A stretch of DNA of 57,232 nucleotides from positions 1-57,232 of the forward strand of contig JAOZSS010000003.1 of the NCBI GenBank assembly GCA_029939545.1, in the 5' to 3' direction. This document shows positions 1 through 46,208 of this stretch, in pieces (position 1 is the stretch's first letter; every line of letters begins with the position of its first letter). The notes below the pieces were generated by a model. That model did no database searches, had not been told where the DNA came from, and saw only the letters and a program-made list of their open reading frames with translations. The position numbers and the translations under genes were made by a program. The stretch comes from Kiritimatiellia bacterium (GTDB taxonomy: Bacteria > Verrucomicrobiota > Kiritimatiellia > UBA8416 > JABMPJ01).

Positions 1-498
1 CCACCCTGTTTTCTATGTTTTTCCTCTCTCAGGCAGGAGCGGAAGACCGGTTACCCCCGTTTCGAGATACACGATTACCAGTCGTCGACACTGCTCGACT
101 ACGATCAGTTCTGGGTGGGTGCCCGTGGCTATCACCAGACGTTCCCGAAGATCAAACTTTTCGCTGGTGTCGGCCTTGGCCGCATCGCTATGACTGAGCG
201 CGGCGTCATTGGCGATGCCGACTATATCGAGCTGTTCGGCGGCTTGCAGGGGCGCCTCACGGCCAAGACGACACTCCATGTCCGCGGCGGACATCAGCGC
301 CGTGAGTTCGAAGACGCTATTGAGACCATCGAAGATTGGGTTGCCGCGGCGGGGTTGTCCGGGCGCGTTTCGGAACGTACGGATTGGAATCTGGACCTGT
401 CGCGGATGGAGCGGGTCAGCGTGCGAATACGCGTTGGCGCCGCGTCGCCAGGTCGCGGCGTCGATGCGGCTACCAATAGATCGAATGCACTCACGTAA
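1..498 (+). CDS. 5'-truncated ORF open at the window edge; hypothetical protein, C-terminal part
   Basis: Frame 1 is open from base 1 to TAA at 496-498; listed ORF 115..498 is its ATG-delimited part. Alternating hydrophobic/polar runs (IELFGGLQGRLTAKTTLHVRGG, VSVRIRVGA). No family recognised. It competes with antisense ORF 13..663. Confidence 0.3.
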   Translation, partial: PPCFLCFSSLRQERKTGYPRFEIHDYQSSTLLDYDQFWVGARGYHQTFPKIKLFAGVGLGRIAMTERGVIGDADYIELFGGLQGRLTAKTTLHVRGGHQRREFEDAIETIEDWVAAAGLSGRVSERTDWNLDLSRMERVSVRIRVGAASPGRGVDAATNRSNALT

Positions 499-1817: not shown

Positions 1818-4019
1818 CTATCCGGCACGGTCGATGGCGGCGGCGATGGCATCGGCGAGCTGGCGCATGACAATGGGTTTCTGGATAATGTCGGCGAACC
1901 CATCACGCAGGGCCTCGGCCTCGGTGTATTGCTGACTGTAGCCGGTGCAGAGGATAACCGGCAGGTCGGGCTGAAGTTCGGTGACCGCCTTGGCCAGTTC
2001 GCGCCCGCTGATACCCGGCATGGAGAGGTCGGTCACCACCAGATCGTAAGCGCCTGGCGATTGGCGCAGCATCGTCAGCGCCTCTTCGCCGTCGCAGGCG
2101 AGCGCGGGGGCGTAGCCGAGGGCACGCAACATCTTTACGGCCATCTGGGCCACGGCGGTTTCATCATCCACAAACAGCACCGACCGTCCGCTACCGGCGT
2201 GCAGATCCTGAGTGTCAGAGGCATCCTCGGTGGCCTGCTGCTCGACAACCGGCAGGACCACGTGGAAGGTCGTGCCTTCACCCAGTACCGAGGTGACCGT
2301 CAGCGCTCCCTTCAGCCCGACGATGATGCCGTGCACGACGGCGAGTCCCATGCCGGTGCCTTCCCCGCTCGGCTTGGTCGTGAAGAACGGTTCAAAAATC
2401 CGTTCGAGCGTGGCGACATCCATGCCGCAGCCGGTGTCCTTGACCCTGATGCGAAGATAGCGTCCCGGCTCCAGGTCGGGGAACTCGGACTGTGCGCGGG
2501 TGCCGATCACGAAATCGGCCACATGGACCTCGATCTCACCCCCGCTCTCTTTCATGGTATACCCGGCATTGGTGCAGAGGTTCATCATGACCTGGTGAAT
2601 CTGGGTGGGATTGCTGATGACGACGTCCTGGTCGGTCTTGATGATGCAGCTGACCTTCACACCATCGGGCACCGAGGACTGCTGCAGCTTGACGACTTCC
2701 TTGACGATCGGGATCAGGTGGACCGGCTTGTTCTCGTGTTCGTGCTGACGGCTGAACATAAGGATCTGTTGGACGAGGTCCTTGGCGCGATAGCTGGCCT
2801 TGTGGATCTCCTTCAGAAATTCCACGTTGGGTTCGGTGTCATCCATGCCGTGCAGCATGATCTCAGTGTAGCCGAGAATGGGCGTCAGGATATTGTTGAA
2901 GTCGTGCGCGATGCCGCCGGCCAGCGTCCCGAGCGCCTCCATCTTCTGGGCCTGCTGAAGCTGGCGTCCGCTGCGCTGGAGGGCTTCCTTGGTCTGAATG
3001 CGGCTGGTAATGTCCTGCACCTGCAGCAGGTAGCCGCGTGGCGCGTATTCGCGATCCATACCCAGGTTCAGCATCAATACATCAAGGTGTCCCGCTCCGC
3101 GTCGGCTGGTTACATAGAGGCCGTCGGTCCGCGCCTTATCGAAATCAATACTCATCTCGAACTGTGCCGTATCGCGCTGCTCGAGAACCCGGCGCATTCG
3201 CTCCGGAATAAACGGGTTCGCAAACGGATCGAATTGCGCGAACTGCTCGGTATCGGGCGCACCGAACGTTTTGAGGCAGGCCTGGTTGACGTTCAGAAGC
3301 TTGCCCGTGCCGTCGTAGAGTGCCACGCCGACCGGCGAGTGTGAGAAAAACTCCTCGAAGCGCCGCTCGCTTTCCTGTAGATCGCGCTTGGCCTTCTCGC
3401 GCTCGGAAACATCGTGTGCGGTGGAGATGATCATAGACTTGCCTTCCAGCTCGAAGGCGTGCGAATAGATCTCCACCGGGATGTGATCGCCGTCATGGGT
3501 CAGGAAGGTGCTGGTATATTCGGCATGGCCCTCGGCCAGGATGCGCTCAACCAGTTGGCGGACCGGGCGCACGGCAAAGGCGGTTTCACGGTCCATGATC
3601 TCGTCATCGGAAAGCGTGACCAGTTCGCTGCGGGTATAGCCGGTAATCGCGGAGGGTGTATCTGCGGTTTGAATCTCCAGCGGCGAGAGCTTGAGTAGCT
3701 TGTCGCGGCTGTAGCCCAGCGTCTCACACGCCACCACGTTCACCTCGGTAAAGTGGCCGGGCAGGCCGTCCTCGGTGAGTCCGTACATGAAGACCATGTC
3801 GGTGGTGTGGGCAAACAGAATGCGGTAGAGCCGGTCCTTAAGCACGAGGGCGGTCTCGGCCAAGACGCGGGCTTCGCGCTCGTTCTTCAGCTTGCCGCGC
3901 TCATAGAGGACGCGCAGTGAGTGCTGGCGTGCCTGCCGGAGAAGCAGAATATAGCCAGCGACACACGCTGCGATGAGTGTGATGGTGCCAACCAGAAATG
4001 CCAGCGCTACGCTGTTCAC
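1818..4019 (-). CDS. hybrid sensor histidine kinase / response regulator with PAS domains
   Basis: N-terminal TM helix, two PAS-like segments, H-box HDFNNILTPILGYTE, N/G boxes (DTGCGMD, GTGMGLAVVHG), C-terminal receiver (VLFVDDE...DLVVTDLSMPGISG). Confidence 0.9.
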   Translation of the reverse strand: MNSVALAFLVGTITLIAACVAGYILLLRQARQHSLRVLYERGKLKNEREARVLAETALVLKDRLYRILFAHTTDMVFMYGLTEDGLPGHFTEVNVVACETLGYSRDKLLKLSPLEIQTADTPSAITGYTRSELVTLSDDEIMDRETAFAVRPVRQLVERILAEGHAEYTSTFLTHDGDHIPVEIYSHAFELEGKSMIISTAHDVSEREKAKRDLQESERRFEEFFSHSPVGVALYDGTGKLLNVNQACLKTFGAPDTEQFAQFDPFANPFIPERMRRVLEQRDTAQFEMSIDFDKARTDGLYVTSRRGAGHLDVLMLNLGMDREYAPRGYLLQVQDITSRIQTKEALQRSGRQLQQAQKMEALGTLAGGIAHDFNNILTPILGYTEIMLHGMDDTEPNVEFLKEIHKASYRAKDLVQQILMFSRQHEHENKPVHLIPIVKEVVKLQQSSVPDGVKVSCIIKTDQDVVISNPTQIHQVMMNLCTNAGYTMKESGGEIEVHVADFVIGTRAQSEFPDLEPGRYLRIRVKDTGCGMDVATLERIFEPFFTTKPSGEGTGMGLAVVHGIIVGLKGALTVTSVLGEGTTFHVVLPVVEQQATEDASDTQDLHAGSGRSVLFVDDETAVAQMAVKMLRALGYAPALACDGEEALTMLRQSPGAYDLVVTDLSMPGISGRELAKAVTELQPDLPVILCTGYSQQYTEAEALRDGFADIIQKPIVMRQLADAIAAAIDRAG

Positions 4020-4058
4020 TCTACCCCCGAGGCTTCTCCGTACATATCCCGGCCGCGG

Positions 4059-4579: not shown

Positions 4580-5305
4580 CTACTCCAGGTCGTAGAGGCT
4601 GTTGTCATCGGAAAGGAACCCGTATCTCTTGTCGAGTTTTCCGCTTGCGGCCGAGCTGGTATACCGCTCGCTGCGCGATTCAACGTGAGCATCAGCAAAC
4701 GCGACGTTGGTTCGGCCCCGATGGCGAAAGCCCTGTGTTCCCGATTTCGCCTGGGAGCCATCGCTGTCGAGCCGCCCCGGGAAGGGCGATCGCATAAACT
4801 TGTTGGCCCCGCTCTCGTATTCGGCGTCTCCGAACAGCGCGCACTGGCTGGGATCGGCGATCATACCGAGGCTGGCGGATTGCGTCGAATGGGCCATGTT
4901 GCCACCGTCGCGTCTGAGGATGCGTCCCCCGATATAGCTGGCGTTGTAGTTGTAGCCGGTATACGGATCATCCTCCCACATCGCCTCACCATGGAAAGAC
5001 GGGCATTGTTGTATCCGGTACCGTGCTCCCATTTCCCACAGGTATGCCTCCCAGGTCTTGGTGGTGCCGGTCGAGAAGTCGCGTGTGTAGGCGGGAGGAA
5101 ACTGGCCGTGCTCAGACTCGTATATCAGAGCTGCCAGCGCCATCTGGCGCAGATTGCCGACACAGGCAATGCGTCGTGCTTCCTCCCGCGCCGTGTGCGC
5201 TGCCGACAGGGAGAGCGCCGCCAGGACACCGATGATCGCCATCACGACCAAAAGCTCCAGCAGCGTGAATCCGGCTGTGTTTCTTCTCTGCGCGTCACTC
5301 ATCAT
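4580..5305 (-). CDS. prepilin-type N-terminal cleavage/methylation domain protein, DUF1559 (H-X9-DG) pseudopilin-like
   Basis: N-terminus GFTLLELLVVMAIIGVLAAL (class III signal). C-terminal HRGRTNVAFADAHVE resembles the H-X9-DG motif. The start overlaps the stop of the upstream gene by 11 nt. Confidence 0.85.
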   Translation of the reverse strand: MMSDAQRRNTAGFTLLELLVVMAIIGVLAALSLSAAHTAREEARRIACVGNLRQMALAALIYESEHGQFPPAYTRDFSTGTTKTWEAYLWEMGARYRIQQCPSFHGEAMWEDDPYTGYNYNASYIGGRILRRDGGNMAHSTQSASLGMIADPSQCALFGDAEYESGANKFMRSPFPGRLDSDGSQAKSGTQGFRHRGRTNVAFADAHVESRSERYTSSAASGKLDKRYGFLSDDNSLYDLE

Positions 5306-7640
5306 GGCGCACCCGGAGCCTCAAAAAAGTACCGCCACTATCGACCACGGCGCTATCCGCCATCGGCAGGACTCCGTTGGAGGGAGTGGATGCAGCCGCA
5401 GTGCTCTGGATGCCATCCGTGGACCAGTCAGGACTCAGCAGACTGACCGTGCGAACCGCTCCAACATCCACGTCGGGAGCGTGGGTTGACACTGTGTACG
5501 ACACGTCAAGCCGGGGGGGTGTTGAGGCCCTGTCCAGCGCAGCCGCAAAGGCCGCTTCTCCCGTTCCGTTGGTAGGGCTACGGCCCAGGCCGTATGCCAT
5601 GAGGTTGACGATGCCATCGTGGTCCGCATCGGCCCCGTCGGCTTCCTCGGCGGGTGCGCCCATCCATGCAAAATGGCACGTGCGCCAGAGCTGTTGCGGG
5701 AGCCCTGGGGCCACATCGGCCATGGCGTCGACTTCGGGGGCCAGGGAGACGGTTGGCGCGATGCGGACGTAGCGTATCCATTTGTGTCCTGTGGCAGGGC
5801 AGGGCGCAAGGGGGAGGTCCCCGATATCGAAGCCGGTGCCGCCAGCCGAGCCGCGATAACGTTGTGCCAACGCGCCTACGCTCTCGCCCTCCCAGTCGTC
5901 GGGACCAACGGATGGGTCGGGCGGAACCGTTGGGTCCGTGGCACCCCCCCACCAGGCGTTGGAATGGCCGCTGTACGTATGGCCGGGATCATAGACGCGC
6001 CCAAGCGTCGGCATGAAGCGGTCGCACCGGTTGCTGACAAAAGCATGCCATGTTACGCCGTCCTGGCTTACCGACACGCCCCCCTCATCCGTTTCGCAGA
6101 CCGCAGAGACCGTGGTATTGGTAGGTGTCCCATTCTCCCACTCTTCCCCTGTTCCGATCAACTGCATGGCATTGCCGAAGAGCAGGAAATCCACGCCATA
6201 GGGATTGGCGGGGTTATCCAGTACTTTGTGGTCGAAGGCCAAAACCAACTCGCCCCCGAGCCCCACGGTTACAAGCTCGTGAGCTCGGAATGGGGCATAG
6301 ACCGGGACGACAGGTACGGCGTTGGTGAAATCAATGGCGCCATCGTCTCCGGTCGTATCCACCGTTGGCCGACCCAGGGCGGCGGTTGAGTCTGTGAACG
6401 GGTCGCCCGTAATCCAGTCGAATCCGATGCCCGTGCCCTCAGTATAGGTGACGACGCTGTCGCCGTAAGGATAGTGCAGTGCCGCGGACGGCCAGCCCGG
6501 GGTACGGGCCACCGTGCCGGTGGAACGGCTCCACACATCCCATGAGCCATCGTACAGCATCCGGTTGTCCAGCCCGGCAATGGTGTCAACAGGGGTTGCT
6601 TCGAAGTAGATGTCTGAGTAGTCGATTGTCCAGTGCGACCAGTTGGCGCTCTGCGCCGTTGCGTTTGTGTGGTCGGTTGAGAATGATGAAAGCACCACGT
6701 CATGGGCGTGGGTTCCCGGCAGGATATCGCCATGGCGGACCGGTCGCTGGTAGGCGCATTCGGCCAGCACGAGGCCGTCGGGCGTGTTCGTCAGCGATCC
6801 GGTGAGCGCGCTGTCTGCGTTGGTGACCGCTTGCCACATATCGAGCGCAGTGGCCTCACCGTCCCATCGGTAGCCCCATGCCAGTGCATGACGCCGCGAG
6901 CGGTCATGCCAGTCCATCACCAGGGCGGCGCGGTTGGAGCCCGCGCCTGTCCAGAACTCGATCTCGTCGAGCGCGAAGCCTGCCATCGGGATCGCCGGCA
7001 GTGGCGATCCAGGCATGGCGGCAACACACTCGACCGGTGGCGGGTTCGATCCGACCGGGAAGGTGACGACGGCTGGCCGCCAGCCATCCCAGTCGCCATC
7101 TTCCAATTGACGCACCCCGAAACCACTACCGGACTCGATCCACGATCCGCCGCTGAACGGATCGCCTACACCGAGGGAATAGTGCCAGTACTGGCTGTAC
7201 CACCCCTCTTCATAATGGTCATCCGGATCATCGGCGTAGCCGGTCTCGGTGCCGATTCCCGCCGTGCCCGGGTGGAACGCGCCGCCATCGCCATCAACGT
7301 CGTAGCCCACGCCGTAGACCACTTGGCCGAGGAACCCGGAGGTGTAGATGAAGCGGGCGAGGCGGGGATCTGCCGCCACAACGGCCTCAAACATGTCTCG
7401 CCCTGTCATGGTGCCATTCCATCGATAGCCCCACGCCAGACTGACCGGATCGATGCCGTCGTTCCAGTCAAGAACGAGAGCGGCACGATTGGTGCCGTGC
7501 CCAACCCAGAAGCGGATGTCTTCCAGGTCGAACTCGGCATGGACCTGTGCGGTGGCCAGGAGTCCAAGGCAGGCCCGAAGGACAGCCTTGGACACGGGTC
7601 GCCTACAGCACAACGCGGATCTGAACAAATCTGTCATCAT
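5295..7640 (-). CDS. large secreted protein of unknown family; tandem WGYRW repeat modules plus a domain shared with the upstream gene
   Basis: Listed ORF runs to 7775, but a signal-peptide-like start MMTDLFRSALCC...LLATAQVHA begins at 7640. Two about 60-aa repeats (F-W-x-G-x-G-x-NRAALV-x-DW...LAWGYRW-x-G). Central region similar to 7603..9186 (LGRPT...LV-x-G-x-GG-x-L...FDH...NP-x-G-x-D...FGN). C-terminal DADHDG motif. Confidence 0.75.
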   Translation of the reverse strand: MMTDLFRSALCCRRPVSKAVLRACLGLLATAQVHAEFDLEDIRFWVGHGTNRAALVLDWNDGIDPVSLAWGYRWNGTMTGRDMFEAVVAADPRLARFIYTSGFLGQVVYGVGYDVDGDGGAFHPGTAGIGTETGYADDPDDHYEEGWYSQYWHYSLGVGDPFSGGSWIESGSGFGVRQLEDGDWDGWRPAVVTFPVGSNPPPVECVAAMPGSPLPAIPMAGFALDEIEFWTGAGSNRAALVMDWHDRSRRHALAWGYRWDGEATALDMWQAVTNADSALTGSLTNTPDGLVLAECAYQRPVRHGDILPGTHAHDVVLSSFSTDHTNATAQSANWSHWTIDYSDIYFEATPVDTIAGLDNRMLYDGSWDVWSRSTGTVARTPGWPSAALHYPYGDSVVTYTEGTGIGFDWITGDPFTDSTAALGRPTVDTTGDDGAIDFTNAVPVVPVYAPFRAHELVTVGLGGELVLAFDHKVLDNPANPYGVDFLLFGNAMQLIGTGEEWENGTPTNTTVSAVCETDEGGVSVSQDGVTWHAFVSNRCDRFMPTLGRVYDPGHTYSGHSNAWWGGATDPTVPPDPSVGPDDWEGESVGALAQRYRGSAGGTGFDIGDLPLAPCPATGHKWIRYVRIAPTVSLAPEVDAMADVAPGLPQQLWRTCHFAWMGAPAEEADGADADHDGIVNLMAYGLGRSPTNGTGEAAFAAALDRASTPPRLDVSYTVSTHAPDVDVGAVRTVSLLSPDWSTDGIQSTAAASTPSNGVLPMADSAVVDSGGTFLRLRVRHDE

Positions 7641-9186
7641 TGCTGTTCCCGTACCAAAAGGTGTTGGTGCCTGTTGGACTGCGCCGGACGTTCCCATCCA
7701 GTACCATCCACCCGTTTGTAAGGCTGCTTGTGTGTTCCACTTGGAACGGAATATCTGAGCCGTTGGTACCGCCAAGCCACGTCACGTAGTTCGAGTCGCC
7801 TACGCGTCCCATGTCGGTGATATGGAAGAACGAATCGATGTTGTCGGCATCCGTTCCGGACAGAAACTCCTCCCATGCACAGAATCCATCGTGGTCGATA
7901 TCTGCGAGCGCGGCGGCGTCAAACGTGGGGTAGGTGGCGTTGGTAAGCCCGTTCTCAACCAGCCAGTGAACCGGGGTCTCATTGGTTGCCATGTCCGGAT
8001 CGAATACGGCCGTTATGCTTCGATGGCGATCCATGCACAAACCCATTGTATGAGTTGCCGTGTCACCTTGTGTGGCACCGGTCCATTCTGCGAAATAGAA
8101 ATAGGTTCCCGGCGTGGCCACGAGCGTGATATTCGTCCCGTGCTGATGGGTCCCGTTCGACAGGTTCACATGGCCGCGCCCTTCCGTGTTCACCGTGAGC
8201 GTAAACGCCGCCACCGCAGCGACATCGCTGAACCCGTCGATCTCAGTGGACCATCCCTGACCGAGGGCCTGTGTGACCATGACATACTGAATCCAGTCGA
8301 GCCCGGTCGCGGAGATGTCAACCGGAGCGCCGCCGCCAGCGCCGTTATAGCCAGCCAGCATTGTGGGGTAGTCCGATCCGACCCAGGCCAGGTTCGTGTC
8401 TACCGGCATGAGAAAGTCCGAGGGTGTTGTGCCGTCCGATCCGTAAGCCGACGAGGTGTCGCGGTAGCCCTGGCTCGGGTAAGCGCCATCGGCGGTGATC
8501 GCCGTGATCTCGTGCCAGTTGGTGCCGTTTTGACTGACCAGGATCGTGCCCGGGTCGTTATCCAGGGCCGCTACCTCTCCGTCGGGATAGCTTGAGTCCC
8601 AGAAGAAGCTGTTGCCAAAGATAATCAAGTCGGCACCGAACGGGTTGAGCACGTCGTTGCTCACGGGATGATCGAAGCGAACAGCCAGGTAGCCCCCCGA
8701 GCCGATCGAAACAAGCTCGCTATCCTGGTAGGGGCTAGAGAACATGGTGATATCACCCCAGGCACCATCACGTGTCGGCCGGCCGAGCGACGAGGCTGTG
8801 TTTGTGTAGGGTTCGCCCGTCCAGTAGTCGGTTGCTACGTTCGTTCCTGACATGTAGCCCACGACCTCGTACGCCCACGGTCCTCCCGTGAACTCGGCCG
8901 TAATCGAGCGGGCACCATCAATCGGAACATCAACCTGATTTCCATTGATCGTGCATCCGTTGGTGTTGCCGCCCCAGCCCAGAAACGCGCAGTGTTCATC
9001 CGGGGTAGCAGTTAGCGTGTTTGTAGTCCCCAGTGTGTACAATCCCGTTCCGGGTGACACTGTGCCATTACCGCCAACCACGTCCACCGTGAGAAGCACA
9101 TCTTGTCCCTCGGTTCTGGTCGCCACGCTACTACAGGCCACAACCGCCAATACGAGTCCCATCCATCTCTTTATCACGACCGGCAT
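7603..9186 (-). CDS. secreted protein of unknown family with two InlB-B-repeat-like modules; paralogous central domain to 5295..7640
   Basis: Signal peptide MPVVIKRWMGLVLAVVACSSVA. Two modules of the type VxGGNGTVSPG...TLTATP...F-x-GW (bacterial repeat domain). Central SSLGRPT...SIGSGGYLAVRFDHPV...NPFGADLIIFGNSF domain. C-terminal DIDHDG. GGGAGG directly upstream of the ATG; the GTG at codon 4 is an alternative start. Confidence 0.75.
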   Translation of the reverse strand: MPVVIKRWMGLVLAVVACSSVATRTEGQDVLLTVDVVGGNGTVSPGTGLYTLGTTNTLTATPDEHCAFLGWGGNTNGCTINGNQVDVPIDGARSITAEFTGGPWAYEVVGYMSGTNVATDYWTGEPYTNTASSLGRPTRDGAWGDITMFSSPYQDSELVSIGSGGYLAVRFDHPVSNDVLNPFGADLIIFGNSFFWDSSYPDGEVAALDNDPGTILVSQNGTNWHEITAITADGAYPSQGYRDTSSAYGSDGTTPSDFLMPVDTNLAWVGSDYPTMLAGYNGAGGGAPVDISATGLDWIQYVMVTQALGQGWSTEIDGFSDVAAVAAFTLTVNTEGRGHVNLSNGTHQHGTNITLVATPGTYFYFAEWTGATQGDTATHTMGLCMDRHRSITAVFDPDMATNETPVHWLVENGLTNATYPTFDAAALADIDHDGFCAWEEFLSGTDADNIDSFFHITDMGRVGDSNYVTWLGGTNGSDIPFQVEHTSSLTNGWMVLDGNVRRSPTGTNTFWYGNSNDDRFVQIRVVL

Positions 9187-9314
9187 CCTCCCTTTGGTTT
9201 AGTAGTCAAGCGGTCGCGGAAGCGGACCCAAGCGGGGTGATAAGGGGAGGGAAGCACACGGCACCCCAATCGCGAGGGCCGTCATCATGCCTATGGGTCC
9301 GCATTTCGCGGCCC

Positions 9315-9341
9315 AAAAAAACCTCCGCTCTCCACTGGAGG
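9315..9341 (-). terminator. intrinsic terminator acting as riboswitch expression platform
   Basis: Minus-strand RNA CCUCC-AGUGGAGAGC-GGAGG followed by U7. The 5' arm region (ACCUUCGUCCUCC) can alternatively pair with GGGAGGAAGGU inside the aptamer (plus coordinates 9449-9459). Confidence 0.6.
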
Positions 9342-9415
9342 ACGAAGGTCTGTCTGCACACTAGACTGTCTAGCTATGCGGGTGGCCCTCGATCCGGCGA
9401 AGAAGCCTTAATCCC

Positions 9416-9562
9416 CGCAAGAGCACGTCTTCTGGCTTACGGTATCAAACCTTCCTCCCGCCTTCTTATCTCCACTCGGAGACAATGGCCTGCTAGGAGG
9501 TCGTAACCGATTACAGCGGCGCGACCGCGTCCGATTCTCACGGACTTCCGTCTACTCTTACG
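9416..9562 (-). promoter_or_regulatory. cobalamin (B12) riboswitch aptamer
   Basis: Minus-strand RNA GACGGAAGUCCGUGAGAAUCGGACGCGGUCGCGCCGCUGUAAUCGG matches the conserved core (compare E. coli btuB leader AGGGAAUCCAGUGCGAAUCUGGAGCUGACGCGCAGCGGUAAGG). GGCCAUUG...GAAGGCG internal element. B12 box AAGCCAGAAGACGUGC. 10-bp P1: CGUAAGAGUA / UGCUCUUGCG. Confidence 0.85.
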
Positions 9563-9598
9563 CTATCGACCGGGAAACTCCCCCGTCGATGTGGGTGA

Positions 9599-25870: not shown

Positions 25871-26052
25871 AAGAGAAGAACGAACAATCGAACATTCGAA
25901 CAGCCGAACTGCGAAGTGGGAATACTGAGTGCGAAGGGCTACGGCTCTTACCTTTATGGTGCGCTCGGTGGTCGGGGCTGTCCTGCATCTCGTTTGAAGC
26001 TGCCGCGTTCTTCATTCGTAGTTCGGCTGTTCGAATGTTCGTCCTTCTCTTT
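25871..26052. repeat. long imperfect inverted repeat (MITE-like or structured element) in the lpxI/argF divergent intergenic region
   Basis: Left arm AAGAGAAGAACGAACAATCGAACATTCGAACAGCCGAACT (25871-25910). Right arm AGTTCGGCTGTTCGAATGTTCGTCCTTCTCTT (26020-26052). A 22-nt core is perfectly complementary; about 110 nt lie between the arms. Confidence 0.7.
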
Positions 26053-26132
26053 TGACCTTGGATTCTGATAGAGCGGTGGCATTATGGCCTGACGCCCGTC
26101 TGGATGATGATGTCGGGTGGGAAGGATTCTCA

Positions 26133-27128
26133 ATGAGCAATGGTATTGATTTGAAGGGGCGGTCGCTGCTGACGCTCTCTGACCTGTCGGACGAAGAGAT
26201 CGCATGGTTGCTGGATGTGGCGTTGGAACTCAAACGAGACAAGCACGCGGGCACATGCGCTCAACGGCTGGTGGGTCGGCATATCGCATTGGTGTTTGAG
26301 AAGATGTCGACCCGTACGCGTTGTGCGGCAGCCGTTGCGGCAGCAGACGAAGGCGGGCGGACCGAGTACCTGGCCGCCACCGAAATTCACCTGGGCAAGA
26401 AAGAGTCGGTCGCCGACACGGCACGGGTGCTGGGCCGGATGTTTGACGGTATTCTGTTCCGGGGCTACCGGCAGGAAACCGTGGAGCTGCTGGCCGAGTT
26501 CAGCGGCGTACCGGTGTGGAACGGGCTGACTGATCTCTCGCACCCCACGCAGGCGTTGGCCGACCTGATGACGATCAAGGAGCGGTTTGGCGATCTGGCC
26601 GGGCGCAAGGTGGTCTATGCCGGCGACGGGCGCAACAACGTGGCGACCTCGCTGATGCTGGGCTGTGCGATCAGCGGGATGGATTTTGTCAATTGTACGC
26701 CTGACTCGCTCCGGCCGGCAGATGACCTGATCAAACATGCAAACCAGGTGGCTGTCGAACGCGGCGGTACGGTGCGGGTGTGTAGTGATCCGGGTGAGGC
26801 GGTCCAGGGCGCCCACGTGGTCTACACGGATGTGTGGACATCCATGGGCGAAGAGGATCAGTTCAAGGCACGCGTGGAGCTGCTACAGCCCTACCAGGTG
26901 AATATGGACCTGATGCAGGCAACCGGCAATCTGGAGTCCGACAACGTGATCTTTCTGCACTGTCTCCCCGCCTTTCACGATCATCGCACGGAGGTCACCC
27001 AGAAGTCTGGCCCCTTGGAGGTCACGGACGATGTATTTGAAGCACCGTTCTCGAAGGTGTTCGACCAGGCGGAGAATCGCCTGCATACGATCAAGGCGCT
27101 GTTTGTCTCATCACTCGAAAGGGATTAG
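26133..27128 (+). CDS. argF: ornithine carbamoyltransferase
   Basis: FEKMSTRTR, HPTQALADL, HCLPA motifs. Start moved to MSNGIDLKGRSLLTL. Confidence 0.85.
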   Translation: MSNGIDLKGRSLLTLSDLSDEEIAWLLDVALELKRDKHAGTCAQRLVGRHIALVFEKMSTRTRCAAAVAAADEGGRTEYLAATEIHLGKKESVADTARVLGRMFDGILFRGYRQETVELLAEFSGVPVWNGLTDLSHPTQALADLMTIKERFGDLAGRKVVYAGDGRNNVATSLMLGCAISGMDFVNCTPDSLRPADDLIKHANQVAVERGGTVRVCSDPGEAVQGAHVVYTDVWTSMGEEDQFKARVELLQPYQVNMDLMQATGNLESDNVIFLHCLPAFHDHRTEVTQKSGPLEVTDDVFEAPFSKVFDQAENRLHTIKALFVSSLERD

Positions 27129-27137
27129 GAGGTCATC

Positions 27138-28208
27138 ATGGCGTTGACGGACATAGCGTGGGACGCGTTCCTCGAACTCGATCCGGTGGAGAAGAGCCGT
27201 CACCTGAACCAGGATGACGGGCGGCCGTTCCATGTGCTGATGACGCGGCAGTTCGATCGCAAGGCTCTCGACACGCTTGGCGAGCTGGCCACACGGATTC
27301 GCTTCCTTGCTAAGACCAAGGAGGGTATGACTTTCCTGGCCGGCCTGCTCCCGCACCGGCGGGCGATGCTCTACTTCACGCAACCCAGCACGCGAACGTT
27401 TCTCTCGTTCTGTTCCGCGTGCGAGATCCTGGGTATGCGTATCGGCAACGTGCGCGATACGGCGACATCCAGTGAGCTCAAAGGGGAAACGAAGGACGAT
27501 TCGGTCCGGACGTTCAGTTCCTACTTCGACTGTGTGGTCATGCGTACGCAGGTGGGCGGATTGGCCGAACGTATGGCCTGGGTGCTGTCGAATTCCGAGC
27601 GGCCGGTTCCGATTATCAACGCCGGCTCGGGCAAGGACCAGCATCCGACCCAGGCGCTGCTGGATATCTACACGCTCCAGCGCAGCTTCGAGGATTGTGG
27701 TGGCATCGATGGCAAGACTGTCGTCTTCGTGGGTGATCTGCTGCGTGGACGTACGGTGCGCTCACTTTCTGCCCTCCTGACGAACTACGAGGGGGTCCAC
27801 CAGGTGTTTATCGCCCCGCCCGAGCTGCAGGTGGCCGACGATGTGCTGGCGATCCTGGATGCGAGCCATGTCACATATGAGCAGGGCGATGACCTCGCGG
27901 CAGCGGTGCCGAAGGCCGATGCCATCTATATGACACGCGTGCAAGATGAGTGGGACACCGAGAAGGGCGCAAGCGCAAAGATCGACATTGAGCGCTACTG
28001 GCTAAAGGAAACCCACCTGGAGCAGCTCAAGCCGGATGCCGTGATCATGCATCCGCTGCCTCGTCGCCACGAAATTCCCCCGTCCATCGACAACGATCCG
28101 CGCGCCGTCTACTGGCGCCAGATGCGGAACGGGATGTGGATTCGGACGGCGCTGCTCGCCACGATCTTTGAATGTGACGGAGATATATATGCGTTTAGCC
28201 AGGCATGA
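27138..28208 (+). CDS. pyrB: aspartate carbamoyltransferase catalytic chain
   Basis: QPSTRTFLSF, KGET, NAGSGKDQHPTQALLD, MTRVQ, MHPLPR motifs collinear with E. coli PyrB. The N-terminus is somewhat extended. Confidence 0.8.
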   Translation: MALTDIAWDAFLELDPVEKSRHLNQDDGRPFHVLMTRQFDRKALDTLGELATRIRFLAKTKEGMTFLAGLLPHRRAMLYFTQPSTRTFLSFCSACEILGMRIGNVRDTATSSELKGETKDDSVRTFSSYFDCVVMRTQVGGLAERMAWVLSNSERPVPIINAGSGKDQHPTQALLDIYTLQRSFEDCGGIDGKTVVFVGDLLRGRTVRSLSALLTNYEGVHQVFIAPPELQVADDVLAILDASHVTYEQGDDLAAAVPKADAIYMTRVQDEWDTEKGASAKIDIERYWLKETHLEQLKPDAVIMHPLPRRHEIPPSIDNDPRAVYWRQMRNGMWIRTALLATIFECDGDIYAFSQA

Positions 28209-41360: not shown

Positions 41361-42686
41361 ATGACTCTAACTCGGCGTGAAATGCTTAAGACATCACTCG
41401 CAGGCGCGGCGGGCTTGGCGCTGTGTGATCCATTGCTGACGCGCGCGGCTGTTGCGGCACCGCAGGCGCGGGCCCAATCGGTCATCCAGATATGGATGTG
41501 GGGCGGCCCGGCCCATCTCGACACGTTCGACCCCAAGCCGGGAGCCGGCTATGACTATGTCGGTCCATACGACACCCCCATCGCGACGAACGTGGACGGC
41601 ATCCAGATTGGCCAGATGCTCCCCAAACTGGCACAGCAGGCCGACAAGTATTCCATCCTGCGCGGCATGACGCACGGGGTGAACGGCCACGAGACCGCGT
41701 CCTATCTCGTGCAGACCGGGCACAAGTCGGGCGATGGCATGGTCTATCCCTCCGTCGGCGGCGTGGTCTCCTACTTCAAAGGCTATCGCGCGGACTACGC
41801 AGGACTGATTCCTCCCTATATCGTTCTGACCAAGCCGCAGGGCCGCTTCTCGGAGGCCGGGTTCCTCGGTACGCGCTACAAGCCGTTCTCCACGGGGGGC
41901 AACCCGTCCAAAGATCCCTTCCTGGTTGAAGGCGTGGTGGCGAACGGCATCTCGCGCAAGCGCCAGGAGAACCGGCGCGCCCTGTTGAATGAGCTGGATA
42001 CGCTGGGCCGCAAGATCAAGGGCAATGCCGCTTTTGCGGCATCGGATCGCTGCGAGCAGCAGGCCTATGACCTGATCCTGGGTGACGCGGGGAAAGTGTT
42101 CGACCTCACCGAGGAGCCCGATGCTATCCGCGCCCGCTACGGCCGACAGGAGTTCGGGCAGTCCTGCCTGCTGGCACGGCGCCTGGTGGAGCAGGGCGTG
42201 CCCTATGTCACGATCAACTATCGCGGCTGGGACACGCACAAGCAGCATTTTCAGAGCATGCAGCGACAGCTTCCGCAGCTCGACAGCGGCCTCTCAACAC
42301 TATTTGCGGATCTCTCCGAGCGCGGGCTGCTCGATTCCACGATCGTCTGGTGGGGCGGCGAGTTCGGGCGCACCCCGAAAATCCAGTGGGACCCGCCCTG
42401 GAATGGCGGTCGCGGCCATTATGGCAAGGCCTTCTCGTCGGTCCTGGGCGGCGGCGGCTTCAATGGCGGCCAAGTACTGGGTGCCACGGATGAAAAGGGC
42501 GAGAACGTGGTGGAGCGCAAGATCTATCCGCGCGACCTGATCGGAAGCATGTACGAGCTGCTGGGTATCAATCCCGAGGCCACGCTGCCGCACCCGCAGG
42601 GGATTACTGTGAAAGCCATGCCGGAGGCAACCGATGGACAGGATGCCGGGCGACTCTACGAGATTATGAAAGGGGCGCGCACATGA
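41361..42686 (+). CDS. DUF1501 domain protein (sulfatase-fold), Tat signal
   Basis: TRREMLKTSLAGAAGLAL twin-arginine-like leader. GGPAHLDTFDPKP, WGGEFGRTP, GRGHY motifs. Confidence 0.85.
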   Translation: MTLTRREMLKTSLAGAAGLALCDPLLTRAAVAAPQARAQSVIQIWMWGGPAHLDTFDPKPGAGYDYVGPYDTPIATNVDGIQIGQMLPKLAQQADKYSILRGMTHGVNGHETASYLVQTGHKSGDGMVYPSVGGVVSYFKGYRADYAGLIPPYIVLTKPQGRFSEAGFLGTRYKPFSTGGNPSKDPFLVEGVVANGISRKRQENRRALLNELDTLGRKIKGNAAFAASDRCEQQAYDLILGDAGKVFDLTEEPDAIRARYGRQEFGQSCLLARRLVEQGVPYVTINYRGWDTHKQHFQSMQRQLPQLDSGLSTLFADLSERGLLDSTIVWWGGEFGRTPKIQWDPPWNGGRGHYGKAFSSVLGGGGFNGGQVLGATDEKGENVVERKIYPRDLIGSMYELLGINPEATLPHPQGITVKAMPEATDGQDAGRLYEIMKGART

Positions 42687-44776
42687 CGACCCGCGTTTCA
42701 GGATGGCTGCGGATGGCCGGTGTTCTGCTGGCACTCGGCGGCGCGCTACAGGCCGTCGAGCCGCACATCGGCTATGTCTATCCCGCCGGTGTCCGGCAAG
42801 GCACGACAGTGGATGTCATCGTCGGCGGCCAGTTCCTGAAAGACACGGCGGAGGCGCTCTTCACCGGTTGCGGCGTGCGCGGTCGGGTGATCGGGTATCA
42901 TAAGGAGCTGACCCCTAAGGAAATCAACCGCCTGCGCAACCGCAAAGAAAGGCTCGAGATGTCCCTGGAGGACAAGCCCGAGGAAGAGCAGACGAAGATG
43001 GAAGCGCAGCTCGCTGACATCATCGAGGAGTTCAAGGCGCAGGGGTGTAACGAAAAGGGCCGGTATCTCAAGGGACGCCGCCCGGACCCCAAAAAACAGC
43101 CCAATGCCCAGATTCGCGAGCAGGTCACGCTGCGCTGTACGGTCAATCAAGACGCCGAGCCGGGTGCTTACGAGCTGCGGCTCAAGACACCTCAAGGGCT
43201 TTCGAATGTCATCATCTTCCACGTGGGCGAGGTGCCCGAGGTGCGCGAGGCCGAACCCAATGATCGCGAGCCCGAAGAGGAGCAGCACCTCACGATGCCG
43301 ATGGTGGTCAACGGCCAGGTGATGCCGGGCGATATCGACCGCTTCCGGATTCATGCCACGGCTGGCCAACGCCTCGTCTGCAAGGTCGCCGCGCGTAGCC
43401 TGGTGCCCTATCTCGCGGACGCCGTTCCCGGCTGGTTCCAGGCCGCGCTGACGCTCTATGACGGCGATGGCAAAGAACTGGTGTTCGTGGACGATGACCA
43501 CTTTGATCCGGATCCGCTGTTGGTCTACGATGTGCCAACCGATGGCGACTACGTGCTCGAGATTCGGGATGCAATCTACCGCGGACGCGAGGATTTTACC
43601 TACCGGCTAACAATTGCCGATGCGCGCAGTATGGATGTGCCGATCCTGGTGGCGGCACAGGGCCCTGCCCGCCAGAAGGGGGACATCGCCGAAGTCGAGC
43701 CGAACAATTCGCACAAGACGGCCCAGGCGATCACGCTCCCGACCGTACTGTATGGGCATATTAACAAACCCGGCGACGCGGATATCTATGCCTTCGAAGG
43801 GCAGGCCGGTCAGGCGATCGTCATTGAGACCCGCGCCCGTCGCGACGGGTCCCCGCTCGACTCTGTGCTACAGCTCAAAAGCCCCGAGGGCAAGGTGCTG
43901 GCTGTGAGCGATGATCACATTGATCGGCGGGAAGGGCTGATGACACACCACGCCGACTCGTACATCGTCGCGAAGCTACCTGCGGACGGGCGCTACGTTG
44001 TGCATGTGGGCGACATCCAGGGCAAGGGCAGCGATGAGCATGCCTATCGGCTTAGAGTCACACCGTTCCGTCCCGCATTTGACCTACGAGTAACACCTGC
44101 CACATTGAGTGCCACGCCCGGGGGCACTGTTCCGATCACCGTGCATACATTCCGGCGCGATGGCTTCGACGGACCGATCGAACTTGCGCTGACGCACAAT
44201 CGCCTCAACTGTAGGCTGAGTGGCACGGTCATCCCGCCCGGCACGGAGAAGATCCATGCCACCATCACGGTGCCCTGGAAAACAGAGGAGGGCGTCGTCG
44301 AACTTGCACTGGAGGGACGCGCCAAGGTTAACGGCACCTTCGTGACCAAGGAGGCCGTGCCGGCCGAGGACCGCATGCAGGCGTTTCTGTGGCGGCACCT
44401 CGTTCCGGTCGAGCAATGGGTCCTTTCGGTCGTGGGCGGCCCGCGCATCATGGTGAAAGCAGAGATCCCGAAAAGCGGGGCAGTGGAGTTGGTGCCTGGG
44501 CAGGAGACGACCCTCGTGCTGCATGCACCGCGGCGAAGACCGATCAAGAGGCTGCCGCGCCTCGAACTGTATGAACCTCCTGAGGGATTGGAGGTGGCGC
44601 AAACCGTCCACCGGAACAGGAAGACCGAAGTTGTACTGACACTAAAAGCGGATCCCGAGAAACTGAAGCCGGGTACAAAAGGAAATCTGATCCTCAACAT
44701 CCTCGCCCCAAACAAGAGAGTGCGGAAAGTACTGGGTACCGTACCCGCCATACCGTTTAAGGTAGTCGATCTGTGA
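42683..44776 (+). CDS. secreted protein with two pre-peptidase C-terminal (PPC)-like domains
   Basis: Signal peptide. Two EPN(D/N)...GDxDxF/Y modules (EAEPNDRE...PGDIDRFRIHATAGQ; EVEPNNSH...PGDADIYAFEGQAGQ). Confidence 0.65.
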   Translation: MTTRVSGWLRMAGVLLALGGALQAVEPHIGYVYPAGVRQGTTVDVIVGGQFLKDTAEALFTGCGVRGRVIGYHKELTPKEINRLRNRKERLEMSLEDKPEEEQTKMEAQLADIIEEFKAQGCNEKGRYLKGRRPDPKKQPNAQIREQVTLRCTVNQDAEPGAYELRLKTPQGLSNVIIFHVGEVPEVREAEPNDREPEEEQHLTMPMVVNGQVMPGDIDRFRIHATAGQRLVCKVAARSLVPYLADAVPGWFQAALTLYDGDGKELVFVDDDHFDPDPLLVYDVPTDGDYVLEIRDAIYRGREDFTYRLTIADARSMDVPILVAAQGPARQKGDIAEVEPNNSHKTAQAITLPTVLYGHINKPGDADIYAFEGQAGQAIVIETRARRDGSPLDSVLQLKSPEGKVLAVSDDHIDRREGLMTHHADSYIVAKLPADGRYVVHVGDIQGKGSDEHAYRLRVTPFRPAFDLRVTPATLSATPGGTVPITVHTFRRDGFDGPIELALTHNRLNCRLSGTVIPPGTEKIHATITVPWKTEEGVVELALEGRAKVNGTFVTKEAVPAEDRMQAFLWRHLVPVEQWVLSVVGGPRIMVKAEIPKSGAVELVPGQETTLVLHAPRRRPIKRLPRLELYEPPEGLEVAQTVHRNRKTEVVLTLKADPEKLKPGTKGNLILNILAPNKRVRKVLGTVPAIPFKVVDL

Positions 44777-45851: not shown

Positions 45852-46208
45852 TTATCTGCTCCCTGTCCATCTCTCCCAGTCCGGCACATAGATGGACATC
45901 AGACTCTTGAAGAGTTTGCCGTGGTTTTGGATACGCAGATGAAGCAGCTCGTGGACAATCGCGTAGCGCTGAAACGAACTGGTCTGCACGAGGAGATTCT
46001 CGCTGAAAGTCACCCACTTGCCGGGCGAACATGAAGCCCATTTGTTCCTCATCCTCTGCACGCGTATCTGGGCCGGCTCCACCTTCAGTGTCTTGGCCCA
46101 CTCGCGAACGCGGGCTTTGAAAGCAGCTTTCTCTTCTCTTGTCGGACCTGTCGGACAGGTCCGACTTGTCTGACGATTTTCCGCAGTGGTCCTCCTTGCC
46201 CGACTCAT
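45852..46208 (-). CDS. short DUF45/YgjP-like (M48-type HExxH) metallopeptidase, R-M associated
   Basis: RWASCS...AIVHELLHLRIQNHGKLF. ATGA overlap with the hsdR stop. The N-terminus contains repeat element a, read in a non-SD frame (RQTSRTCPTGPT). Confidence 0.65.
   Translation of the reverse strand: MSRARRTTAENRQTSRTCPTGPTREEKAAFKARVREWAKTLKVEPAQIRVQRMRNKWASCSPGKWVTFSENLLVQTSSFQRYAIVHELLHLRIQNHGKLFKSLMSIYVPDWERWTGSR
46141..46174. repeat. palindromic 9-mer tandem element, copy a
   Basis: GTCGGACCT GTCGGACAG GTCCGACTT GTCTGAC, inside the DUF45 gene N-terminus. Confidence 0.9.

Follow-up and report, generated by a model that had tools for sequence, protein, structure and literature searches.

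The window that we analyzed, a stretch of DNA of 57,232 nt, contains a cobalamin riboswitch aptamer and a terminator hairpin 5' of three overlapping genes, which encode two large predicted secreted proteins (P1 and P2) and a prepilin-type protein (P3) (Table 1). The aptamer matches RF00174 over the entire model (positions 1-189 of 189) and scores 80.9 bits (gathering score 31.5; E = 2.1e-18, cmscan). It is located just beyond the 4580-9186 interval that holds the genes, upstream and on the same strand. Thus, the proposal of an earlier sequence-only reading that a cobalamin riboswitch heads a non-canonical cargo was confirmed. The hairpin that follows the aptamer reads GACCUUCGUCCUCCA-GUG-GAGAGCGGAGGU and ends in a run of seven U. 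The RNA fold of the 9290-9420 region has a minimum free energy of -53.2 kcal/mol (z = -3.0), and none of 200 shuffled sequences was equally stable; a simple terminator scan did not catch the hairpin because its stem is bulged. Judging by this anatomy, the hairpin probably serves as the OFF switch, and the expression of P1-P2-P3 would be repressed by B12.

Table 1. Features of the riboswitch-headed locus, with coordinates counted from the first nucleotide of the window.
Feature	Coordinates	Strand	Basis
Cobalamin riboswitch aptamer RF00174	9405..9597	(-)	cmscan
Expression platform, intrinsic-terminator-like hairpin	9315..9350 (approx.)	(-)	sequence reading and RNA fold
P1, 527-aa predicted secreted protein	7603..9186	(-)	ORF
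Domain B of P1 (aa 100-330), predicted CBM32/discoidin-like beta sandwich	8197..8889	(-)	AF2 and Foldseek
P2, 781-aa predicted secreted protein	5295..7640	(-)	ORF, start chosen at M46
Domain A copy 1 (P2 aa 36-195), predicted DUF4430/transcobalamin-beta-like	7056..7535	(-)	Foldseek
Domain A copy 2 (P2 aa 218-380)	6501..6989	(-)	internal repeat of copy 1
Domain B of P2 (aa 385-647)	5700..6488	(-)	paralogy with P1 domain B
P3, 241-aa prepilin-type DUF1559 pseudopilin	4580..5305	(-)	Pfam/NCBIfam

The open reading frame of P2 (5295-7775) opens at a TTG codon, and the plausible start, M46 at position 7640, yields 781 aa; the size given earlier for P1 (527 aa) stands, and that for P2 (approximately 782 aa) is corrected by one residue. 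P1 consists of a signal peptide, an InlB B-repeat, a domain that we call B, another InlB B-repeat, a DIDHDG motif and a C-terminal beta domain. The InlB B-repeats were recognized by Pfam in two stretches as Flg_new_2 (PF18998; 73.2 bits, threshold 23.6). P2, read from M46, begins with a signal peptide that ends in ...AQVHA/EF, followed by two copies of a second domain, A, by domain B, by helices bearing DADHDG, and by a C-terminal beta sandwich ending in ...FLRLRVRHDE (AF2 model of P2, pLDDT 86.2, pTM 0.71). The C-terminal DxDHDG motifs noticed earlier are thus present in both proteins, and so is the common domain of about 230 aa: residues 103-323 of P1 and 391-644 of P2 align over 259 columns with 30% identity (E = 2e-27), which sets its length at ∼230-260 aa. 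The N-terminal repeat region of P2, the two copies of domain A, had been overlooked. We found 83 homologs of P2 but only 25 of P1. P1 is not assigned here as a lipoprotein, since its lipobox-like VVAC is not kept in the orthologs, whose N-termini differ.

No Pfam family matched P2. Scanning Pfam and NCBIfam with the whole proteins and with each sub-domain, up to E = 10, left domains A and B and the C-terminal domains unassigned, and single-protein searches of PDB sequences gave no meaningful match. The only hints in the Pfam/NCBIfam scans were faint ones to the Amuc_1099 family (E = 0.003) and to LIC_13355.

The domain B family comprises at least 401 clusters at 90% identity, and P2 domain B shares 42-62% identity with its counterparts among the domain-B genes in 90 related loci. 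The AF2 model of P1 domain B (pLDDT 95.4, pTM 0.92) had as its top Foldseek match in the PDB chain 8blw_B, the B. theta BtuG1 protein that combines a BtuG propeller and a BtuH-type domain (E = 1.6e-6, probability 1.00, but TMq 0.39 and rmsd 12.7). It was followed at E ∼1e-2 by the CBM32 of AlyQ and by discoidin domains, folds that usually bind glycans. The conserved B12 and metal ligands of the BtuH B12-binding domain include Tyr510, Trp511, His476, Asn399, Glu406 and Asp522. BtuH2 (7BIZ) was not among the top 50 Foldseek matches of domain B, and 8blw_B was not listed for the full-length P2 model. At the sequence level, domain B matched nothing in Pfam at E ≤ 10, neither phmmer nor profile searches of the complete set of PDB chain sequences brought up a BtuH or BtuG1 chain at E ≤ 10, and no PDB relative emerged with the HMMER profile of either domain A or domain B. 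Based on the models, domain B is possibly related to the BtuH B12-binding domain, which is also carried by BtuG1 (PMC10404256).

The Foldseek search with the P2 model retrieved the beta domain of human transcobalamin with probability 1.00, a weak E-value (∼1e-2) and 141-145 aligned columns; the matches are 5np4 and 5no0 (isolated beta domain, TMt 0.66-0.67), 4zrp_A, 7qbe_A and 7qbf_A. These matches are attributable to domain A, since they vanish when domain B is used alone and since the alignment length fits. DUF4430 is the C-terminal domain of transcobalamin (PMC4350170), and according to PDB entry 5np4 the isolated human beta domain was crystallized with cyanocobalamin. The DUF4430 profile (PF14478) had no match at E ≤ 10 in either domain A copy of P2 or in 22 family members. 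Domain A can be joined to Pfam DUF4430 via intermediate sequences: in 7 of 10 multi-repeat relatives of domain A, which are distant, the very units that repeat as domain A pass the gathering threshold of DUF4430. The predicted fold thus appears to be a divergent DUF4430/transcobalamin-beta-like one. The domain A profile recovered at least 1644 cluster representatives at 50% identity. The two copies in P2 share 33% identity; homologs of ∼600 aa keep copy 2, and other proteins bear up to six or seven repeats. Domain A was also found fused to a DUF5074 propeller within a Bacteroidota-style riboswitch-btuB-type locus. For the DUF5074 propeller of protein P0108, a PDB sequence search for a link to BtuG gave only a weak match to 9s6c/BtuK1 (E = 0.012). 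Structure prediction (AF2/Foldseek), named earlier as a check on the locus, returned no unrelated enzyme family, pointing instead to the transcobalamin beta domain for A and to the BtuG1 chain for B.

We surveyed 80 species-level genomes encoding domain B, of which 71 include 1.2 kb or more of sequence upstream and were judged for the riboswitch. The locus search was seeded with 22 closer domain-B sequences, an alignment of 47 sequences being too divergent. A same-strand cobalamin riboswitch lies upstream in 67 of the 71 informative loci, always on the coding strand and at a median of 774 nt before domain B. It is also kept in all ten metagenomic relatives that were first examined, and was not detected in four loci with ample upstream DNA (L025, L062, L067 and L070). 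Within the ∼706 kb searched, the sole strong opposite-strand match precedes btuFDC in locus L053. The association of the riboswitch with its cargo is therefore far above chance. The hosts are Kiritimatiellia, Lentisphaerae, Verrucomicrobiota and Planctomycetota, together with one locus from Armatimonadota (L091); among the carriers is a cultured isolate, Anaerohalosphaeraceae bacterium U12dextr (L065). A complete lack of association between the orthologs and the riboswitch had been named beforehand as an outcome that would count against a B12-responsive system; the 67 loci and the Armatimonadota locus show the reverse.

The HMM survey detected domain A in 70 and the P3-type pilin in 71 of the 80 loci. 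The conserved unit is a triad of domain A, domain B and one specific pseudopilin ortholog, to which P1 adds a further, lineage-specific domain B. Hence, the pilin of the operon proposed earlier holds as a conserved member, and its core of two paralogs does not. Unbiased clustering of the neighboring ORFs in the 80 loci brought up no further conserved partner such as a secretin, an ATPase or a TonB receptor; the other neighbors are lineage-specific and include a ComF-like protein, a LexA-like protein, MCP and FAA hydrolase. The A/B proteins of other lineages end in PEP-CTERM, dockerin or T9SS tails.

In three relatives (L001, L002 and L014), btuF-btuD-btuC directly follow the cassette (Peripla_BP_2, ABC_tran and FecCD). 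In the Armatimonadota locus, a single riboswitch (122 bits) precedes the series pilin-B-A-B-A-btuR-btuF-btuD-btuC, where CobA/BtuR adjoins BtuFDC-type genes. The earlier remark that the operon lacks a TonB receptor or canonical transporter extends to the whole window, in which Pfam scans found neither a TonB-dependent receptor nor btuFCD; across the survey, no outer-membrane transporter is linked to the module.

We consider it fairly likely that the locus encodes a B12-repressed corrinoid-capture and acquisition module that feeds BtuFCD and has a pseudopilin partner. The retention of the riboswitch, the adjacency to btuFDC and the fold matches support the earlier suggestion of an undescribed corrinoid-responsive capture system that resembles BtuG/BtuH in role only. 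Literature searches combining the riboswitch with DUF1559, prepilin, Kiritimatiellota or Planctomycetes retrieved no description of the module, which probably represents an undescribed route of B12 scavenging. From the features above we infer corrinoid binding, the localization of the proteins, the role of the pilin and the outer-membrane route.

The neighbors of domain B other than BtuG1, namely carbohydrate-binding modules and discoidin domains, and the PEP-CTERM and dockerin tails, which are typical of matrix and surface proteins, would also suit an adhesion or lectin system that is switched on by B12 starvation and that, binding no corrinoids, attaches cells to polysaccharide or to partners that produce B12. 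Such a system seems very improbable, as the module shares an operon with btuR-btuFDC, and as domain A resembles transcobalamin-beta/DUF4430 and also occurs inside a btuB-type locus; moreover, to our knowledge adhesins have no precedent in B12 regulons. Corrinoids could also be bound for sequestration, storage or competition and not for import. The multi-copy, multi-repeat architectures, with their six or seven domain A repeats at most, and the surface anchors agree with this, as does the case of BtuJ1, for which a role as an extracellular reservoir is proposed (10.1101/2025.07.01.662609). However, the module is closely tied to btuFDC and to a pseudopilin anchored in the membrane, which speaks for delivery, and we regard a pure reservoir as very improbable.

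The gene for the third member of the triad, P3, shares 11 nt (5295-5305) with the end of the P2 gene, as had been reported. Its cleavage/methylation motif AG/FTLLELLVVMAIIGVLAAL (AG/FTLLE, with Glu at +5) is followed by a hydrophobic helix. P3 matches the Pfam N_methyl profile (35.3 bits, threshold 21.2), TIGR02532 (30 bits, threshold 16.3) and SBP_bac_10/DUF1559 (PF07596; 50.9 bits, threshold 23.3, with only positions 2-50 of the 268 in the profile matched), and the match to TIGR04294 (HX9DG) is borderline at 19.3 bits against a cutoff of 19. The C-terminal motif reads H-X9-DA, the family consensus being ...TNVxFxDGH. Orthologs of P3 adjoin a domain-B gene in 81 of 91 sources (36-66% identity, E 1e-35 to 1e-100). 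Among 52 orthologous sequences, 40 positions are at least 95% conserved, and the conserved positions of the globular part cross phyla and are rich in aromatic residues. DPYTGYNYN and GANKFMR are invariant motifs of this pilin.

These data bear on whether P3 takes part in handling the corrinoid. The module might scavenge B12 while P3, as a dedicated adaptor of type II secretion or of an endopilus, served only to export or display the A/B proteins and had no share in ligand transfer; the corrinoid would then enter via an unlinked outer-membrane transporter such as BtuB. P3 shows every characteristic of a pseudopilin, the module encodes no secretin, ATPase or transporter, and the varied sorting tails of the A/B proteins (PEP-CTERM, dockerin, T9SS) are in line with such an export function. 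Nevertheless, the pilin ortholog is kept where A and B already have a sorting route through PEP-CTERM or T9SS tails, as documented for PEP-CTERM in the Armatimonadota locus, and the unusual conservation of its aromatic-rich globular part fits an interface with a ligand or partner better than a generic adaptor. An adaptor-only P3 is thus rather unlikely.

According to the capture-and-acquisition reading, low intracellular cobalamin would let the riboswitch permit terminator readthrough into P1-P2-P3, as its anatomy suggests. P1 and P2 would leave via their Sec signal peptides and remain cell-associated, here possibly via the DxDxDG motif and the C-terminal beta domain and in other lineages via the PEP-CTERM, dockerin and T9SS tails. 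Outside the cytoplasmic membrane, domains A and B are predicted to bind corrinoids, perhaps with the ligand clamped between the two, an arrangement that would account for their being fused or encoded in adjacent genes. P3 would be cut by the prepilin peptidase, anchored through its N-terminal helix and act as the obligatory partner, either relaying the ligand across the envelope or displaying the binders. The ligand would then pass to the BtuF/BtuCD ABC importer, which is presumably encoded elsewhere in this genome and lies directly downstream of the cassette in several relatives. A bolder form of this scheme is that the PVC group and some Armatimonadota have a TonB-independent, pseudopilus-based import of B12, in which surface or periplasmic A/B binders load a dedicated DUF1559 pseudopilin, or a short endopilus built from it, that carries or hands the corrinoid across the envelope to BtuFCD; we put it forward tentatively, as a possible but doubtful extension. 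This idea can be likened to DNA uptake by competence pseudopili.

The module can be compared with several known systems. Like Bacteroides BtuH (BtuH1, BtuH2 and the H-domain of BtuG1/BtuGH, which are surface lipoproteins), it is headed by a B12 riboswitch and combines Ig-like repeats with a globular beta domain: InlB B-repeats flank domain B in P1, and three PKD domains precede the binding domain in BtuH2. The CBM32 of AlyQ is a structural neighbor of BtuH (PMC8941943) and of domain B alike. However, no sequence similarity is detectable, the lipoprotein signal is not conserved, the host phyla are different, and the partner is a pseudopilin rather than the BtuB-BtuG complex. Membership in the BtuG family was rejected, as the models have no seven-bladed beta-propeller and no TonB receptor occurs in the window or the module. 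BtuJ/DUF4465 (PF14717; augmented jelly roll with a GTPAYF loop) was likewise set aside, given no Pfam match and the absence of 9FCT and 9I2L from the top 50 fold matches.

Domain A shares its predicted fold with the beta domain of transcobalamin, intrinsic factor and haptocorrin, as judged from the five transcobalamin entries, but differs by an extra conserved N-terminal hairpin (FWxGxGxNxAxxVxDW...WGYRW), by long insertions and by the lack of the alpha6/alpha6 partner domain, a part that domain B may take. With the Bacteroides cobamide relay of BtuJ, BtuH/BtuG, BtuB and BtuFCD (PMC13616437) the module would have in common several riboswitch-controlled surface binders that act upstream of BtuFCD, whereas in the PVC module the TonB-dependent transporter, the BtuG propeller and DUF4465 are missing and a pseudopilin is added. 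P3 has the prepilin motif, the Glu5 helix and the HX9DG region of type II secretion pseudopilins, type IV pilin-like proteins and the DUF1559 expansion of Planctomycetes; in contrast to DUF1559 proteins at large, it belongs to one narrow ortholog group tied to the riboswitch and the A/B genes. Our literature searches found no function for any DUF1559 protein and no described B12 system with a pseudopilin.

B12 is a keystone shared micronutrient, and its extracellular capture is known in detail mainly in Bacteroides. The proposed module would fill this gap for the environmentally abundant Planctomycetota, Verrucomicrobiota, Kiritimatiellota and Lentisphaerota. It includes two protein families without a Pfam model, domains A and B, each with a testable ligand hypothesis, would extend to bacterial surface proteins a fold known from the beta domain of transcobalamin, and would offer a first lead to the function of a DUF1559 pseudopilin. 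Were pseudopilus-based import true, it would be the first function assigned within the very large DUF1559 family and a new principle of vitamin uptake in diderm bacteria; a part of the pilin in ligand transfer would amount to a new mechanism of vitamin import. The triad would be a good genomic marker for corrinoid scavenging in metagenomes. Finally, an FHA gene lies downstream of P3 (4059-4487); we did not retain it as a member of the module, as the FHA gene of L001 is located ∼5 kb upstream of the cassette.

The window carries a canonical B12 riboswitch with its terminator: a full-length aptamer and, downstream, a strong hairpin with a U-tract, an arrangement typical of OFF switches that act by terminating transcription. 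It precedes three overlapping, co-translated minus-strand genes, P1, P2 and P3, whose products are predicted to be exported. P1 starts with the ribosome-binding site AAGGGAGG followed by ATG at 9186, and its 3' end is overlapped by P2. P3 is a prepilin-type pseudopilin (motif AG/FTLLE with Glu at +5, hydrophobic helix) that matches Pfam N_methyl, DUF1559 and the HX9DG region. A central domain, named domain B, is common to P1 and P2 (259 aligned columns at 30% identity, E=2e-27), and both possess DxDHDG motifs. The sequence-only reading had described these features correctly, including the 527-aa and ~782-aa secreted proteins and the 11-nt pseudopilin overlap; its statement that the operon has no TonB-dependent receptor or canonical transporter extends to the whole 57-kb window, in which neither such a receptor nor btuFCD was found. 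The remainder of the window holds housekeeping genes and a type I restriction system, and GC content is uniform over the region. Inside the 3' end of P2, ~30 nt ahead of the start codon of P3, lies a terminator-like hairpin followed by ...TTTTTT (5333-5352, minus strand), which could either attenuate the pilin relative to P1 and P2 or be due to chance.

Features of the window, of its encoded proteins and of riboswitches at related loci
Feature	Position	Strand	Description
Cobalamin riboswitch aptamer	9405-9597	-	full-length; RF00174 80.9 bits (gathering score 31.5), E=2.1e-18
Hairpin, then seven U	~9315-9350	-	~55 nt downstream of aptamer; regional fold z=-3.0
P1	7603-9186	-	527 aa
P2	5295-7640	-	781 aa from Met at 7640 (likeliest start); signal peptide ...LLATAQVHA/EF
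P3	4580-5305	-	241 aa; 11-nt overlap with P2
P1 layout			InlB B-repeat, domain B, second InlB B-repeat (Pfam), C-terminal region
P2 N-terminal end	aa ~40-192, ~225-375		signal peptide, then two domain A copies with disordered linker between
P2 remainder	aa ~390-645 (domain B)		domain B, short DADHDG helices, 80-aa C-terminal beta sandwich
L008 riboswitches	1755-1958, 6528-6734		4.5 kb apart; one for metE-nrdD, other for putative capture cassette
L053 riboswitches	7961-8145, 2114-2331	-, +	one per gene set
L011 tandem aptamers	2727-2892, 3032-3199		above RF00174 gathering score
L089 tandem aptamers	3498-3694, 3860-4056		above RF00174 gathering score
L012 tandem aptamers			layout as L011; detected only by R1, the covariance model built here

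We identified 25 homologs of P1 and 83 of P2, the latter mostly ~600 aa long and with only one copy of domain A, the repeat in the N-terminal part of P2. In a first set of ten metagenomic loci, which carry six distinct P1 or P2 relatives, RF00174 was found directly upstream on the coding strand in every case. The gene preceding P2 is variable among them (P1-like, a PQQ-propeller, a PEP-CTERM protein, or none), and P2 and a ~240-aa pilin invariably follow. A search for domain-B patterns in one genome per species then yielded 80 loci from Kiritimatiellia, Lentisphaerae/Victivallales, Verrucomicrobiota and many Planctomycetota (Phycisphaerae, Sedimentisphaerales, Pirellulales and Planctomycetales). 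Using a covariance model built from the eight riboswitch sequences found up to that point, we detected an upstream same-strand riboswitch in 66 of the 80, at a median distance of 774 nt from domain B; the Rfam check confirmed the five weakest hits and added one (L088). After omission of nine riboswitch-less loci that sit at contig ends and have under 1.2 kb of sequence upstream, the riboswitch is present in 67 of 71 informative loci, which answers the question whether orthologs retain RF00174 and excludes a chance or read-through association of riboswitch and genes. In four loci (L025, L062, L067 and L070) neither model detects a cobalamin riboswitch, although the upstream DNA exceeds 1.2 kb; they may be regulated differently or have a leader further upstream.

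Beyond the upstream hits, ~706 kb contained essentially a single strong riboswitch, which lies on the opposite strand before btuF-btuD-btuC in the Pirellulales locus L053, where the A-B-pilin cassette and the transporter genes face each other on opposite strands. Tandem complete cobalamin aptamers, 140-165 nt apart, were observed upstream of the cassette in Kiritimatiellia and Planctomycetales genomes and suggest a sharper or dual-ligand response.

In 71 of the 80 loci, tblastn and HMM surveys placed a specific ortholog of P3 beside the domain-B gene (36-66% identity, E 1e-35 to 1e-100), the others being mostly truncated contigs. Across 52 sequences of this pilin group, drawn from several phyla, 40 positions show at least 95% identity, and the conserved motifs are NLRQM, QCPSF, DPYTGYNYNxSYIG, FGDGxYxxGANKFMRxP, GTQGxRHxGxTNVxFxDGH and GFLSxDNxLYD. 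Domain A is encoded on the same strand in 70 of the 80 loci, fused in frame to domain B or as a separate adjacent gene, and no further conserved neighbor family was found among them. Therefore, the unit under selection is the riboswitch with domain A, domain B and one dedicated pseudopilin. Of the cargo proposed from sequence, two paralogs plus a pseudopilin, the pilin thus stands and the paralogous pair does not, P1 being a lineage-specific additional domain-B copy.

The conserved triad also adjoins B12-import genes. Genes of the btuF-btuD-btuC type directly follow the pilin in three loci (L001, L002 and L014), and in Armatimonadota (L091) a single 122-bit riboswitch heads the order pilin-B-A-B-A-CobA/BtuR-BtuF-BtuD-BtuC, with PEP-CTERM tails on the first A, second B and second A. 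In L008 the module is flanked on one side by a riboswitch-metE-nrdD unit and on the other by cbiMNQO, forming a compact B12-economy island.

No Pfam model matched domain A, domain B or the C-terminal parts even at E<=10, and the fold comparisons that had been proposed as a check revealed similarities for both domains. The P2 model is confident (AlphaFold2, 47-sequence alignment; pLDDT 86.2, pTM 0.71), and its best PDB matches are five transcobalamin entries (probability 1.00, E only ~1e-2), including the isolated beta domain either bound to cyanocobalamin (5np4) or free of it (5no0), with TMt 0.66-0.67 for these two. We assign this similarity to the ~150-aa domain A, because the matches vanish in a search with domain B alone and the alignment of 141-145 columns fits domain A from strand 51 to strand 191. 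The domain A family has 1644 cluster representatives in an exhaustive profile search, many being stand-alone PEP-CTERM proteins of ~220-260 aa and others multi-repeat proteins with T9SS tails. In 7 of 10 multi-repeat proteins tested, Pfam DUF4430, the C-terminal domain of transcobalamins (PMC4350170), exceeded its gathering threshold in the C-terminal half of these same repeat units. Thus, domain A belongs to the DUF4430/transcobalamin-beta superfamily as a divergent member and has an extra conserved N-terminal hairpin. A Bacteroidota-style locus (riboswitch, TonB receptor, DUF5074) encodes two domain A copies fused to a DUF5074 propeller; the sole PDB sequence hint for this protein is 9s6c (E=0.012), which is BtuK1 with bound cyanocobalamin (PMC13616437).

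Domain B of P1, modeled alone (pLDDT 95.4, pTM 0.92), is a CBM32/discoidin-like beta sandwich, for which the best PDB match is 8BLW chain B (E=1.6e-6, probability 1.00), B. thetaiotaomicron BtuG1, whose ~250-residue C-terminal extension is a BtuH-type B12-binding domain (PMC10404256). The predicted relationship to BtuH is suggestive: TMq is 0.39, BtuH2 (7BIZ) is outside the top 50 fold matches of domain B, and 8BLW is absent among those of full-length P2. A starvation-induced lectin or adhesion function for the module is very improbable, as the btuR-btuFDC operon and the transcobalamin-like domain count against it. The profile search gave at least 401 clusters for domain B; all their annotations are of hypothetical, PEP-CTERM or dockerin proteins, and none has a Pfam family for the domain. 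In P0116, a protein of 1250 aa with a T9SS tail, six domain A repeats are followed by domain-B-like motifs SLGDGGSATLTFD...GPDFAVYENGF...VEVSSDGEHF; the domain-B HMM does not detect this region, which, judged by these motifs, may be a more distant relative in Bacteroidota.

Under low B12, transcription would read through the terminator, and the A and B proteins would be located outside the cytoplasmic membrane and bind corrinoids there, anchored in this lineage by DxDxDG and the C-terminal domain and elsewhere by PEP-CTERM, dockerin or T9SS tails. Transcobalamin alpha and beta domains enclose B12; since A and B occur fused or as neighbors, they could be two halves of a similar clamp. The pseudopilin would be an obligate partner handing the ligand towards BtuF/BtuCD, or at least required to deploy the binders. 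We consider a B12-acquisition function of the module probable, and sequestration or storage of corrinoids without import hardly to be expected. A place for the pilin itself within the transfer path is a tentative and rather doubtful proposal, and a purely secretory or display adaptor is unlikely.

The described extracellular B12 binders, BtuG, BtuH, BtuJ/DUF4465 and BtuK, are all from Bacteroides, and no described B12 system includes a pilin, whereas the module here has a pseudopilin. Nothing relevant emerged from full-text searches that paired cobalamin riboswitch with DUF1559, prepilin, Kiritimatiellota or Planctomycetes, and in the literature searched DUF1559 is named in only four papers. 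The novelty would lie in riboswitch-controlled corrinoid scavenging by undescribed families with an unprecedented pseudopilin component.

In P2 and its orthologs, a DxDxDG motif and a small beta sandwich (5298-5699, minus strand) precede the conserved C-terminal F-x-R-L-R-V-x-x-D-E, and the matching region of P1 has a weak NCBIfam match to 'Amuc_1099 family pilus-like system protein' (E=0.003). The P2 region may be a lineage-specific sorting or pilus-docking domain in place of PEP-CTERM. Elsewhere in the window, a DUF1501 protein (320 bits) and a 697-aa protein with a PPC domain form a gene pair (41361-44776, plus strand) with no link to the riboswitch. The type I restriction-modification operon (46205-53161, minus strand) encodes HsdM with an N-terminal HTH domain (636 aa), HsdS, a 273-aa protein and HsdR (986 aa), and adjacent paralogous aspartate/ornithine carbamoyltransferase-family genes (358 and 356 aa) are located at 26052-28208 on the plus strand.
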